Source of the DNA: Octopus vulgaris
Lineage: Eukaryota
DNA length: 64,000 nt
Reading direction: 5' to 3'
NCBI GenBank assembly: GCA_951406725.2
Contig: OX597832.1
Coordinates: 70,246,001 to 70,310,000, forward strand
Below are positions 2,102-24,213 of this stretch, piece by piece. The first letter of the stretch is position 1; the number at the start of each line of letters is the position of its first letter. Under the pieces are notes generated by a model. The model made no database searches. It saw nothing but the letters and a program-made list of their open reading frames with translations, and had not been told where the DNA came from. Made by a program: the position numbers and the translations under genes.

Positions 2102-2146
2102 TTACTTTACCGGTTTCACTCTTTGGAAAAAGATTGTCAAAAGTAA
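2102..2146 (-). ncRNA. Minimal hammerhead ribozyme motif (U3-A8 core variant), left arm of PLE family A
   Basis: Reverse complement reads UUACUU-UUGACAA-stemII-GAAA-CCGG-UA-AAGUAA. Confidence 0.65.
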
Positions 2147-3712
2147 CATGTAAAAGTTTGGTTGCGTTAATTATTGGTTGTTACAAAATGCTAAATTACA
2201 TATATACAGTCTTTGGTAACAAGAACATGTTAAGGACATTAAAAATTTTAACAAGTTCCTTAAAATATTGGGCACAAAAGATTACAACATAAATATACAT
2301 TCTCAAGAAAATGTTAATGATAGTTTTCAGAAGGAATTATTAAAAAGTTCAGTGGGATATTGGTATTGTATCTGTATATTCAAACACGCACAGAATATTG
2401 GTTGTTACAGAGTACTACAATACATATATATACATTCTTTGGTGACAAGAGCATGTTAAGAACATAAAAAAGTTTAACAAGTTCATTGAAATATTGGGCA
2501 CAAAAGATTACAACAAATATATACGTTCTCAAGAAAATGTAAAAGATAATTTCCAGAAGGAATTATTAAAAAGTTCAGTGGAATATTGGTATACACGCAC
2601 AGAATACTATGATTTCAAAAATGTTTACATTATAATAGTAGGGAAGCTAAAACTGACATGTCCACCATGTTAGCGTAAAATAATATTATCTATTCAAGGG
2701 ACATTGTAGGTGTGTTTGGGTGGGGGAAGGAAGAGTAATGTGGAATTGAAAAGAATTTCTTCTTTTTGTCTCTCCTTCACGCACCAATGATTTGGGGGAT
2801 TGGTCTTTAGAGGTCAGAATGGTTCGAGTGTGTGTGTCTTTGTGTGTGTGTATATACATATGTGGTGTGAATAGATGTGTCTGTGTGTTTGTAAAATCTG
2901 GTAGGATGGTGTGTGTATATGTGTGCCCGTTTGTCAACCGCGTGTGTGATCGTCTTGGTGTTGTGTGTGTGTATGTATGTGCGTGATTGGCATTTGTCAT
3001 GGTGATGTGTGTGTGCATGTGTGTATATATGTGTGTCTGTATGGAGGTCAGAATTGTGTGAGTGTGTGTGTCTTTGTGTGAGTTTATATATGTATACATG
3101 TGTTTGTGTGTGTGGGCTGTTTTGATTGGTCCCAGGGTCCATTGTGGTATAAATAGATGTGTATTTTTTAAAATTTGGTAGGATGTTGTGTGTATGGTGT
3201 TGTGCGTGTGTGTACGTGTGTGATTGGCATTCGTCATGGTGCTGTGTGTTGCATGTGTGTGTATATGTGTGTCTGTATGGCGGTCAGAATGGTGTGAGTG
3301 TGTCTGTCTGTGTGTGCGTATATATGTATACATGTGTCTGTGTGTGTGTGTGGGGGTGTTTTTGATTGATCCCAGGGTCCATTGTGGTGTAAATATATGT
3401 GTGTTTTTTTAGAAATTTGGTAGGATGGTGTGTGTATATGAGTGCCCGTTTGTCAACCGTGTGTGTGATTGTCTTGGTGTTGTGTGTGTGTGTATGCGGG
3501 TGGTTAATGTTTGTTAGTGTGTTGCGTGTGTGCTAGTGTGTATATGTGTTTGTTCGTATGTGTGTCCATGTGTGTTGGGTTTGTCTGGGTGGCGCGTGTG
3601 TGTTTATGCGTTTTGTGTGCGTTGGTATTGAGTATGTGTCTGTGTGTGTGCGTATATATGGTGCGAGTGTGTGTCTGTGTGTTTGTTTTGGATGTGTGCC
3701 TGGGGGGGTATG

Positions 3713-4140
3713 TTAGAGTATGTTTAGTTGTGGTCTGTATTTTTGAATAATATTATTTTCCCTATTTATTCGTGTTTGGTCTGTGGTGTTGTCTGGCATT
3801 GGTATATTGAGGAAACTAAGAATTTGGGGGACTTATTGTGTGCACAGAGGCCTATGTGTCCACTAAGTGGTATCTATCTTGTGGTAGGGTCCCTCAGTTG
3901 TTGGCGGTGAACTGTCATCCTTTCTCTGAGGGTAAGGCTCGTTTGCCCTATGTAGTCTTCGTGGCACCCTTCACGCCTTATGACATAGAGTAAATTTATT
4001 GATGTGCAGGTGAAATTATTTTTTATGATAGAGGTGTGTCCTGACTGGAACTTGTACGTTGATCCCTCAATGAGGTGGATGCAAGTCCTGCAGTTGAAAC
4101 GACCACATTTTTTGACGGTGGGCGGTGGGTTTGTGTTGTG
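3713..4140 (-). pseudogene. PLE Zn-linker plus GIY-YIG endonuclease C-terminal fragment (internal stop and frameshift)
   Basis: Manual translation: VKKCGRFNCRTCIHL...NNFTCTSINLLYVIRREGCHEDYIGQTSLTLRERMTVHRQQ...*...ENNIIQKYRPQLNIL*. Confidence 0.9.
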
Positions 4141-4795
4141 TAATCCCCCAAATCATTGATGCGTGAAGAAAGACAAAAAGGAGAAATTCTTTTCAGTTCC
4201 ACATTACTCTTCCTTCCCCCACCCAAACACACCTACAGTATCCCTGAAATAGATAATATTCTTTTACGCTAACATGGTGGACAGGTCAGTTTTAGCTTCC
4301 CTACTATTATAATGTAAACATTTTTGAAATCATAGTATTCTGTGCGTGTATACCAATATTCCACTGAACTTTTTAATAATTCCTTCTGGAAATTATCTTT
4401 TACATTTTCTTGAGAACGTATATATTTGTTGCAATCTTTTGTGCCCAATATTTCAATGAACTTGTTAAACTTTTTTATGTTCTTAAAATGCTCTTGTCAC
4501 CTAAGAATGTATATATATGTATTGTAGTACTCTGTGACAACCAATATTCTGTGCGTGTTTGAATATACAGATACAATACCAATATCCCACTGAACTTTTT
4601 AATAATTCTTTCTGAAAACTATCATTAACATTTTCTTGAGAATGTATATTTATGTTGTAATCTTTTGTGCCCAATATTTTAAGGAACTTGTTAAAATTTT
4701 TAATGTCCTTAACATGTTCTTGTTACCAAAGACTGTATATATGTAATTTAGCATTTTGTAACAACCAATAATTAACGCAACCAAACTTTTACATG

Positions 4796-21000: not shown

Positions 21001-21249
21001 AAGTTCTCTTTATACACACGATGAGCTAGTTTGCCGAAACTTCGGTGACATTGTCAATTCTATTCTAAAGAACAATAAAGCTGTACTCTAGCAAATGTAT
21101 TGAGTAATCATTCAAATTAATTATTTTTTGATTATAAGAGAAAAGCAAACATTCATATATATATATATATATATATATATATATTTTAACGTAAACGAGC
21201 GAAACTTCGACTATTATTATTATTACTATTATTATTATTATTATTATTA

Positions 21250-22720
21250 TTATTATTATTATTATTATTAACATTGATTATAACATAAGTTTGAACCATT
21301 TGGCCAGTAATTTTCTTTGGAGGAAGAAACATGCAGCCGTTCACTTCATGTGAGGTGTATGCTACCGTCGACACGTCTCCATTATTTTAGACTCTTCTCT
21401 GCATTTTCTATTTCTTTCCAGTTGGATTACAGTTTTTACAGCTCTACCTTAGTATCACACCTCCACGTATTTGTAGGATGTGCTCCCTTCCACATTCCTT
21501 GTGCGTTCCAGTCAGGTCTGACGTGTAATGTAGGATGTGGCTTTTGTTAAGATTTGACCTTACCGTTCTCACCCTTCGCCGTCTGTTCTCACGTCTTGTA
21601 CAAGCCTTCATTTCTTATCTATCCCTCTAATTTAAAGAATACACTTTCGATAGTCATTGATGAAGGTGTGTATCTTTTTTAGGGGGAGAGAGGTCTTTTT
21701 CGTTCTTCTCCATGTCTCTTATTTGTAGCGAAGGATGGACTTCACAGTTGAGTGAGCATCAAACACTTCAAATACTTTTACTCGGTGAATATAGAGTTTG
21801 GGTCACTTGTAACAGTAATTAAATCATTTCAGAATGGGTTGGTGACATGAGTCAATATCGATGATGACATTCCTAAACAGAATATTCTCTTGCAAGATGA
21901 CTTCCTTACCCCAACGCTCTTTTCTTTGCACTTTGTTCTTACTCTCATTCATGCTTTTGCTGCAGATTGATTTTCTGGAATATCTGTGAAGTACCGAACT
22001 TTGGGGTGTACCTTCAACTTGCGTTCAGTTCAAATGCATTTCAGACATTTTTTATGAATATGTTTGCGACTCTTAATTCTCGTATTGGGTCCCAACAGAG
22101 CATCGCGAGACAAACAAAAGGCTCTGTACCGTGCGTCCTGCTGAGGTTCTCCTTTATTCATGAAATATAAGCCATTTATAAACATCTGACAGATTCTGAA
22201 TGTTGGCTGGTCGTTGCAGTGTTCTTGAAGGGAGCCGAAGTCCTCAACATTGGAAGCGATGGTGCACAAGCAACATTTGTACTCGATACAACAACTTGCT
22301 CGGATGAATAATTTGAGGATCTCTAAGCAGATGCTACAGGGCAAACGAACTTCTCTGTGAAAGTGCCCCTAACAGAAACCACAACTATTATTTAATTACT
22401 GCGTAATTTCCTCGTCGCACCAATTGCGAAAGCAACTCTTCTCATCGACACAAATGGAGGAAACAAGTCAAGAAAGAAATGGATATCTTCGTAAAACGCA
22501 CATTTTTGATGTAGAATTTAAACGAGATGCTCTAAAAAGCACGGTCAATGTAGAGAACGAGGGAAGCTTGGTCTGCAATTTGTGTCTTCACGGGAGAATA
22601 TTTATCAAGAGCTGGGTTCATTAGTCACCAACGGAGAAAGAAGTGTAAAGTAAAAATTTGAGAGTACAATGTTCTAAATGATCAGAGATGGTCGTCCTTG
22701 ATCACGAGCGGACAGGCACC
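21250..22720. mobile_element. Decayed RTE-clade LINE fragments (mixed orientation)
   Basis: Plus-strand pieces resemble RTE thumb/C-terminus (RISKQML.G, GSLVCNLC); the 3' end atggtcgtccttgatcacgagcggac is similar to 38413-38445. Confidence 0.5.
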
Positions 22721-22932
22721 ATATATATACGTGTGAGCATGTGTATGTGTGTGTGTGTTTGCGCTTGAGGGTGTGTGTATGTTTGAATGTATGTATGGGT
22801 GTATGTAAATATAGATCTAGATATAGATATGGTTATAGACAGGTAGATGTATCATCTACCTATATATCTACCTATCTATTTATCTATATATCAATATATA
22901 TATATATATATATATATATATATATATATATA

Positions 22933-24213
22933 GAAAAGAAAGTGAAATATATACGAGTGGAAATATATATGAAAGAAGGTTTGAAAATGCAATTTTAAAA
23001 GATGTTTATTCACTTGACCGGTTTCACTTTTTTAGAAAAAGATTGTCAAAAGTTACATGTAAAAGCTTTGTTGTGTTAAGTACGGGTTGTCACAAAATAT
23101 TACAATACATAAATACATTCTTTGCTAATAATAAGAAAATGTTAAAAACAGTTTACAAGGAAAAATCTTGAGAAAATATAAAAAAGTTCATTAGAAATAT
23201 TAGGATTTCATTAAAAATAAGATTGTCAACGGTAAAATGTGAAAGTTGTGTAAGAGCTTTGTTGTGTTAAGTATTGGTCGTCACAAAAAATTACAAGACA
23301 TATATACATTCTTTGATAATAATAAGAAAATGTTAAAAACAGTTTACAGGAAGAATCTTGAGAAAATATTAAAAAGTTCATAAAAAATATTAGGATTTCA
23401 TTAAAAATCATATTTGCTTGGAAGTATCTATATATATACGCAGAAAATTATAAGTTGAAAAAGGTGATATTTTGGTGGTATATATATACACAGAAGGAGA
23501 TATATTTAAGAGTTTTCAAAGAATTTGAGATGGACTGGCCTGTTTCACCATTTTATCTTAAAAGGCTATTTTCTATTTTAAGGGAGTGTGGAAGATTGGT
23601 TTGGGTGGGGGATGGAAGAGCAATGTGGAATTGAAAGCAATTTTTTTTCGCTTTCAAGGTTTAGTGGTTTTGGGGATTGGTCTTTAGCGGTCAGAATGGT
23701 GTGAGTGTGTGTATCTCTGCGTGTGTGTATATACATGTGTTTGTGTTTGTGTGGGTCGATTTTGATTGGTCCCAAGGTTTATTGTGGTGTATTTAAATGT
23801 GACTGTGTGTGTTTAATATTTGGTAGGATGGTGTGTGTGTATGTGTGCACGTTTGTGTGTGTGTGTGTATGTGTGTGATTAATATTTGTTAGGGTGTTGT
23901 GTGTGCGCATGGGTGTGTTTATGTGTTTGTTCGCGTGTGTGTATGTGTGCGTATGTGTGTGCGCGCAAGTATGCTTGTATGTTTTTAAATGTTGGTGGGG
24001 ATGTTATGTGTGTGTAGGTGAGTGTGTGTGTATCTTTGTCTTACTATGTTTGTGTTGTTATGATTGTCTTGATGTTGTCTGTATGTGTATTCCCACTAAC
24101 ACAAACACATAAACACATACATGCGCACACACAACACCATAACAAATACCAATCACGCACATACATACACACACATAATACCAAGACAATCATAACAAAA
24201 ACCTTCTTTCATA
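22933..24213 (-). mobile_element. Second copy of PLE family A (3' UTR only) with short inverted segment
   Basis: gaaagaaggtttgaaaatgcaattttaaaagatgttta matches 2063 onward; HHR variant at 23012-23053 with GUC triplet; ends aaaccttctttcata; (TA)n flanks. Confidence 0.88.

Follow-up and report, generated by a model that had tools for sequence, protein, structure and literature searches.

Can the short hammerhead ribozymes carried by Penelope-like elements (PLEs) cut RNA in living cells? The question is raised here by a 64,000-nucleotide stretch of the Octopus vulgaris genome (GenBank assembly GCA_951406725.2, contig OX597832.1, positions 70,246,001 to 70,310,000 of the forward strand; hereafter the window), in which a reading of the letters alone (the sequence-only reading) had noted four hammerhead motifs with U3-A8 in place of the C3-G8 core pair, in two PLE families named A and C. 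Family labels A to H are those of that reading or of this analysis. We consider it likely that the U3-A8 type I hammerheads of one Neptune/Nematis-type PLE lineage cut element RNA after their GUH triplet, probably as a double hammerhead. The variant core is already published and by itself of little consequence; what is new is genomic evidence of cutting.

Hammerhead motifs of the window

Reading the sequence and scanning it with a hammerhead descriptor, we found all four motifs where they had been placed, with the cores and triplets claimed for them. Two identical family A motifs lie at 2102-2146 on the minus strand (core UUGACAA at 2140-2134, helix III palindrome at 2114-2109, triplet GUA, predicted cut 2108/2107) and at 4796-4840 on the plus strand (core UUGACAA at 4802-4808, GUA, predicted cut 4834/4835), while a third, of subfamily A2, lies at 23012-23053 on the minus strand (UUGACAA, GUC, predicted cut 23016/23015). 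The family C motif, at 11888-11935 on the plus strand, has the core UUGAAAA (11896-11902), a GUA triplet, G10.1-C11.1, a 4-bp helix II and a predicted cut at 11927/11928. GAAA-CCGG-U-H was present in all four, and in the window copies helix III is the palindrome ACCGGU, as described earlier, with GAAA, the GUH triplet and the core-proximal helices retained.

The descriptor gave six matches in the window, namely these four, one canonical C3-G8 motif and one A3-G8 motif. Because 100 block-wise dinucleotide shuffles yielded a mean of 0.25 matches of any kind, and none of the 100 gave a Watson-Crick 3-8 pair together with CCGG, the four motifs are not chance. Among the 150 of 178 Rfam matches listed for the window there was no hammerhead family and only simple-repeat look-alikes; searches by CUGANGA, as had been expected, and by Rfam miss U3-A8 motifs.

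U6 snRNA joined at the predicted cut

We searched for family A copies in which the letters immediately before the predicted cut are foreign. Of the 27 matches, many were fold-backs in which at least one arm started at offset 0 to +2; three of the 27 were unrelated and three were internal indels or duplications. Two of the foreign upstream sequences proved to be U6 snRNA (Rfam, 98 bits; 67-104 bits for the U6 pieces overall). The 3' end of U6 has 329 matches in the genome, and among the 100 listed, seven continue into these PLEs, every one at the first base after the predicted cut (four in family C, two in family A, and one fitting the family D post-cut sequence by eye). A search free of any fixed offset, with a gap of 0-30 nt allowed between U6 and a family C anchor, placed six of six matches, from five insertions, at the first post-cut base, and a second U6-family C pattern placed five of five there, adding two insertions. 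In all, U6 was joined exactly at the predicted cut in seven family C insertions and in both arms of one family A insertion. The family C junctions differ in subfamily and in U6 length so that several are separate events, although two with a U6 variant in common may be an exception.

Hammerhead cleavage leaves a 5'-OH end. RtcB joins the U6 cyclic phosphate to 5'-OH ends, both groups being required (Moldovan 2019, PMC6789731), and the U6 junctions fit a 5'-OH cleavage product ligated to that cyclic phosphate. A U6 fusion placed exactly at the predicted cut is likely a fossil sign of cutting in living cells. A literature search on chimeras of hammerhead PLEs and U6 returned no match within a limited literature collection.

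A tandem U6 cluster was also observed at C1:139.42 Mb, and one two-armed U6 junction (C4:31799552) runs into an AT-rich repeat. Other foreign pieces are joined at the cut or within two bases of it at seven loci (L417, L482, L472, L357, L375, L336 and L324), with the same short piece in L357 (family A) and L375 (family C). One of these foreign pieces, tRNA-like and at L417, resembles the 5' half of an intron-containing tRNA, and another resembles an 18S rRNA fragment.

Truncation break points at the predicted cut

Narrow control windows gave 4 and 5 matches against the 27 at the cut, and as match probabilities differ between such windows we relied on break-point scoring over a wide window, in which 100 of 467 matches for family A and 100 of 716 for family C were listed and every distinct place was scored by script. 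Family A had 79 arms, 20 intact and 59 broken; 16 of the breaks fell at offsets 0 to -2, eight of them exactly at 0, while offsets 1-21 held 38, or 1.8 per position (p 7e-4). For family C, 57 of 78 arms were intact and 21 broken, with seven breaks at 0 to -2 (four exactly at 0) and 11 elsewhere over offsets 1-20, or 0.55 per position (p 0.006). Truncated 5' ends of copies thus pile up at the predicted cut. The break points, and the U6 junctions at N1.1, lend indirect support to the predicted self-cleavage 3' of N17.

Four sequencing runs, inspected at contig level across the family A hammerhead-ORF1 junction, showed the family to be present in three organisms and gave no splice joint and no pile-up of ends; an adapter end that lay 3 nt from the cut we did not count as evidence.

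Helix conservation and covariation

Conservation was scored over 174 distinct motifs in the retrieved loci, a non-random sample (A 63, C 52, D 49, others 10). The first three pairs of helix I were kept in 184 of 189 cells in family A, 148 of 156 in C and 134 of 147 in D, compared with 124 of 189, 52 of 156 and 90 of 147 in the best slid register. Between families, pair 2.1-1.1 varies as U-A/G-C, 2.2-1.2 as U-A/A-U, 2.3-1.3 as C-G/A-U/U-A and 10.2-11.2 as C-G/G-C/U-A/A-U, so that two-sided changes occur at five core-proximal pairs (2.1, 2.2, 2.3, 10.2 and, for subfamily C2 against C and D, 10.1). Pair 10.1-11.1 is U.U in family A, G-C in most of C and D, and A-U in C2. The U10.1-U11.1 previously noted for family A was found in 61 of the 63 motifs sampled and also in both family G motifs. 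Helix II of family D has only 1-2 bp.

The covariation claimed within family A did not hold, the two-sided changes appearing only between families. The motifs at 2102-2146 and 4796-4840 are the two arms of one 746-bp inverted repeat (97.7% identical, the motifs themselves identical), and with two of the three family A motifs thus belonging to the same insertion, the reported substitutions between copies come down to a single comparison, that with the 23012 motif, whose subfamily is 86% identical. The changes in that comparison either affect one side of a pair (U.G to U-A) or fall in the loop; one helix I pair is broken.

The hammerhead core is otherwise present in these motifs (U4 G5 A6 N7 A9, G12 A13 A14 A15.1, U16.1 H17), except for G17 in the motif at 10964-11011. 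Watson-Crick pairing at 3-8 takes the form U3-A8, literal C3-G8 being absent, and none of these motifs has an extra base between 9 and 10.1. Comparison of the sequences supports their assignment as type I hammerheads with a U3-A8 pair, and the pair is best described as an inherited isosteric swap of C3-G8, not new chemistry. Nearest-neighbour folding gave -8.3 kcal/mol for the ACCGGU duplex and placed the double-hammerhead fold within 2.2 kcal/mol (family C) and 1.4 kcal/mol (family D) of the cofold minimum.

The carriers are Penelope-like elements

The sequence-only reading had placed the motifs in PLEs, and we found them in PLE pseudo-long terminal repeats (pseudo-LTRs), with open reading frames (ORFs) for reverse transcriptase (RT) and a GIY-YIG endonuclease (EN) in families A and C. 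A genome search with an endonuclease piece from the window recovered family A copies with open RT-EN frames of 776-847 aa; family C has the same kind of RT-EN ORF and family D has intact ones. RVT_1 scored above the Pfam cut-off for A and C, while GIY-YIG fell just under it for C (E 3.6e-4) and gave no match for A. Translations of A, C and D showed a PLE-type RT (DKG, YLDD/FLDD), a C-terminal GIY-YIG domain with CCHH, and a CX2-5CxxC linker. Copies end at the same 3' point and are truncated to different extents at the 5' end, and they have inverted arms, a tail of ~40 nt and (TA)n flanks. PLE traits listed by Craig 2021 (PMC8557442) include a C-terminal GIY-YIG, a Cys linker, DKG, (TA)n targets, inverted 5'-truncated arms and a 30-40 bp tail. 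Given the Cys linker, the carriers appear to be of Neptune/Nematis type, with Neptune and Nematis not separable by a tree whose homologues lack clade names.

In a full unit one motif precedes ORF1, by ~110 nt in families A and C, and a second follows the 3' region. Tandem units have the order pseudo-LTR/hammerhead, ORF1, RT-endonuclease ORF, pseudo-LTR/hammerhead, and their same-strand motifs are spaced by 3.5-5.8 kb. In 5 of 20 family A regions, chosen for their long ORFs, two such motifs flank the ORFs at a distance of 5.8 kb, and the spacing is 4.4 kb in one family C locus and 3.5 kb in one family D locus. Apparent tandem copies of families F and C2 were set aside as segmental duplications without ORFs.

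The window's own copies are dead, truncated relics. One family A insertion (2020-4880, minus strand) consists of an endonuclease remnant, a CA-rich 3' region, a pseudo-LTR with ~226-bp repeats and the hammerhead, with a tail of ~42 nt (2020-2061), an inverted copy at 4142-4880 and (TA)n on both sides; the motif at 2102-2146 lies near the 3' end of its main, 5'-truncated arm and that at 4796-4840 in the inverted arm. Within the insertion, at 3716-4128 and on the same strand as the main-arm motif, is a broken C-terminal piece of a PLE ORF that comprises the Cys linker and the GIY-YIG endonuclease and shares 81% identity with intact family A copies. The 23012-23053 motif is held by a truncated short copy at 22954-23336 on the minus strand. 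One family C insertion (10880-11990, ends approximate) has a minus-strand arm running from the last ORF codons to the tail and a 275-bp inverted arm, which carries the motif at 11888-11935, again with (TA)n on both sides. Its main arm holds a twin hammerhead with G at position 17 (GUG) at 10964-11011 on the minus strand, and at 63140-63208 on the plus strand there is a family A 3' fragment broken off inside helix II and without a core; both had been overlooked before.

Several observations concern ORF1 and its surroundings. An ORF1 lies upstream in A, C and D, those of A and C being 47% identical over 208 aa, and its overlap with the RT-EN frame, in the -1 register, falls at a conserved T-TTT-TTA-G, which makes it a candidate for programmed frameshifting (examples at L146:4783-6087 and 2478-5015 on the minus strand, at L060 on the minus strand, and at L243 and L247). 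Six T at the overlap were present in 11 of 15 junctions of A, 2 of 2 of C and 5 of 6 of D; no strong structure downstream of the overlap was shared among the A, C and D junctions compared. The overlap in the -1 frame at U-UUU-UUA differs from the Neptune and Nematis elements of Craig 2021, where the available text has an optional frameshifted ORF1 in the legend to Fig. 1, with the clade not named (PMC8557442); our literature search gave no hit for PLE ribosomal frameshifting at a slippery site. All three families have a short inverted repeat that overlaps the tail and lies immediately before the start of ORF1 (about 6150-6095 in L146 and about 1505-1455 in L060, both on the minus strand, and about 6040-6100 in L247); it is possibly an RT-binding or initiation element. 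PLE reverse transcription is described as starting internally, near the pseudo-LTR/ORF junction (PMC11167929). At 11860-11895 on the plus strand of the window, the 5' strand of the family C helix I ends in AG after an A/pyrimidine-rich tract, which may be likened to the 3' splice site overlapping helix I in D. virilis Penelope (PMC4209133).

Other features were observed in the window. At 41640-41706 on the minus strand lies the canonical C3-G8 hammerhead, whose helix II is long and whose helix III is a 10-nt palindrome, and the A3-G8 motif at 42095-42163 on the plus strand resembles it. More fold-back or terminal-inverted-repeat elements were seen at 293-486, 5662-6717 and 61201-61564, and the segments at 9292-9810, 31876-32325, 51707-52171 and 54438-55265 are transposase-like and RT-like remnants.

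Abundance of the U3-A8 core in the genome

The search covered the whole 2.8-Gb genome, whose 227 contigs include about 30 large ones. U3-A8 with a CCGG helix III gave 8,923 matches with a helix II of 11-22 nt (58 in the reversed control) and 3,095 with one of 4-10 nt (42 in the control), or about 12,000 motifs genome-wide, a total in which the two sets overlap slightly, both arms of inversions are counted and some decayed retrozyme copies are included. The same frame with C3-G8 had 177 matches, mostly a 359-bp tandem retrozyme among the 100 listed, and mispaired 3-8 states were rare (573 against 398 in the control, and 352 against 111). Canonical min-hammerheads form the majority with 24,072 matches (control 380), so that U3-A8 makes up about a third of the short hammerhead motifs counted. 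Most of the 100 listed from the 3,095 short-helix matches belong to family D (loci L213-L247, with intact ORFs). Copies retrieved by DNA similarity or by ORF also have the ACCGGU helix III, with the limit that the motif pattern applied to them, like the genome-wide counts, required CCGG or a near match.

The 359-bp tandem retrozyme-like repeat (L163-L190) combines a canonical core with the CCGG helix III seen here, and its decayed copies mimic U3-A8; matches at first labelled 'family E' were such copies. Animal retrozymes are described as derived from PLE pseudo-LTRs (2026 preprint, 10.64898/2026.07.22.740005). An initial reading of family D with a long helix was given up in favour of one that places the core nine bases further downstream and makes helix II short. 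A metagenome scan for relatives returned two short loci with no hammerhead in them.

A probable shared origin of the U3-A8 families

Families A and C had been called independent, a description that their proteins do not support. RT-EN identities among A, C and D are 56-58% (58% between A and C), and in a quick IQ-TREE tree of 47 rows, with homologues unnamed, the three fall in a clade of 11 rows (SH-aLRT 80) nested in one of 14 (99), together with proteins of uncharacterised hammerhead state. Family H, 46% identical, lies outside the 14-row clade, and a relaxed scan of its 3' region gave one good candidate, in which the core pair is C3-G8, position 4 is C, helix I has 5 bp and helix III is palindromic. 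Family H is a very young PLE with copies ~100% identical and CCAAT-like repeats (L260:2237-4950 and L293-L312).

As A, C and D are relatives at 56-58% identity within one clade, the simplest reading is that the U3-A8 core was probably inherited once in their lineage. That it arose separately in A and C is unlikely in our judgement. The A and C pseudo-LTRs do not align at the DNA level, five unannotated proteins of uncharacterised hammerhead state sit inside the smallest A/C/D clade, whose support is only 80, and the Cercyon elements of S. mansoni and S. japonicum indicate that a short branch is enough for the swap to occur (PMC4209133 supplement); against these stand the features shared by A, C, C3 and D, namely U3-A8, the CCGG helix III and the lack of an extra base after A9, and their place in one clade that excludes H (SH-aLRT 99).

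How the motifs may act

Under the reading that we favour, two motifs would pair through the self-complementary ACCGGU, in cis within a tandem read-through transcript or in trans, and then cleave, releasing a unit RNA that would begin with a 5'-OH, ~110 nt before ORF1 in families A and C, and end in a 2',3'-cyclic phosphate. Insertions end ~45-57 nt downstream of the predicted cut, and with the 3' end so little beyond it, reverse transcription would run off the cut end unless the RNA were uncut or re-joined; such run-off may produce the short fold-back insertions. The 5'-OH end could be joined to U6, likely by RtcB, giving the U6 chimeras. Joined to the RNA's own 3' end it could form a circle templating longer-than-unit copies, the most speculative step, to which we give slightly less than even chances. 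A broader scheme, with cleavage in the germline throughout the lineage, re-joining by host RtcB, the circle as the normal template and the U6 (possibly also tRNA and rRNA) chimeras as mis-ligations, is more tentative still, and we lean against it.

Several points weigh against cutting. For family A the predicted minimum is lower than the catalytic fold by 5.6-13.9 kcal/mol, and core bases are drawn into competing pairings; the folding test is a weak one, since a canonical retrozyme control also missed, by 9.7 kcal/mol. Published min-hammerheads cleave slowly even as dimers (PMC4209133). In the break-point analysis, a first scoring that stopped early at homopolymers gave the same 16 for family A and only 4 of 21 for family C (p 0.2), and the gap cost was altered after that non-significant score; the p values are generous, because arms of one fold-back are not independent; and copies broken at the cut are few compared with the thousands that run through it. 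Most of the other U6 matches, among the 100 of 329 listed, run into SINE-like heads with a few extra bases or are part of the U6 cluster, and with U6 joined to such heads as well, template switching instead of ligation is possible. Template switching too needs an RNA 5' end at that base, however, so either route points to cutting there.

Whether one motif or two would form the active ribozyme is a separate matter. The claim of dimer-only cleavage appears reasonable in the light of the literature; the paired motifs of the window lie on opposite strands and thus form no dimer within one transcript. A single hammerhead might cleave with the aid of a protein or of tertiary contacts, the palindrome not being needed for a dimer. 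Both modes have been put forward for the hammerheads of cricket satellites (PMC2837043), a same-strand partner is lacking for most genomic copies, which are single or inverted, and footprints at the cut site do not tell monomer from dimer. Yet helix III of a monomer would be 2 bp closed by a 2-nt loop, in S. mansoni the min-hammerhead monomer gave no cleavage where dimers did (PMC4209133), and other families in this genome keep helix III palindromic with different letters, and we regard the single mode as improbable.

Least probable by some way is that the U3-A8 motifs are decayed, AT-drifted, non-cutting vestiges whose junctions came from an RT that halted at structured RNA and changed template: the genome is AT-rich and the two core changes are both transitions in the A/U direction, family A combines U.U at 10.1-11.1 with an unfavourable fold, family D has a helix II of 1-2 bp, decay of the 359-bp retrozyme does give look-alikes (3 of the 174 motifs) and Naiad PLEs spread without canonical hammerheads (PMC8557442), but the core, GAAA and GUH stay the same in families whose proteins are only 56-58% identical, even as the helices covary, the motif is present in young families whose ORFs are intact, and the U6 junctions fall, in families of unrelated sequence, on one base that is the chemical cut site and not a helix boundary.

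Comparison with known systems

Small PLE hammerheads with a diminished stem III that cleave as dimers were reportedly described by Lunse, Weinberg and Breaker in 2017. The motifs studied here resemble that set, which is cited in PMC6765202, in their reduced stem III, PLE link and probable dimer cleavage. The novelty suggested for the core falls away, as U3-A8, U10.1-U11.1, palindromic helix III and dimer cleavage are all in print. U3-A8 occurs in the Cercyon PLE hammerheads of S. mansoni, with ~1,300 matches and a supplement row with UUGAAAA (Cervera and De la Pena 2014, PMC4209133), and Perreault 2011 (PMC3088659) has natural U3-A8 covariation, U10.1-U11.1, stems II of 1-2 bp and weak stems III in natural hammerheads. 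Section 8 of Perreault 2011 makes no link to PLEs, and U3-A8 with U.U in one motif was not seen in the text available. Our literature searches gave no hit for C3U/G8A hammerheads, only Cervera 2014 for U3-A8, and nothing on these motifs for Octopus PLE hammerheads.

Like the PLE min-hammerheads of Cervera 2014, ours are type I, lie in pseudo-LTRs, have a palindromic helix III with a proposed dimer mode and occur as inverted pairs. They differ in combining U3-A8 with a CG palindromic loop and in lacking the extra base between 9 and 10.1, which, with G10.1-C11.1, is a consensus tendency in that paper with exceptions in its supplement. They differ also in that U3-A8 characterises an entire lineage of several families (~12,000 motifs), in which 10.1-11.1 is U.U, G-C or A-U. 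Cervera 2014 offers no in vivo evidence of cutting by PLE hammerheads, whereas genomic cut-site junctions were found here, and Craig 2021 (PMC8557442) calls PLE hammerhead function unclear.

The junctions bear on whether PLE hammerheads work in vivo. Their fixed position at the cut site, in families with unrelated flanks, indicates that these weak-looking motifs leave germline RNA 5' ends there, and they offer an exact target for end-mapping and for a cleavage-and-circularisation model of PLE replication. The closest parallel is with the U6/LINE-1 chimeras (PMC6789731), in which the U6 3' end is likewise joined to 5'-truncated retroelement RNA and then retrotransposed; there the L1 junctions are variable and the nuclease unknown, whereas here they fall on one fixed base, which is the predicted ribozyme cut.

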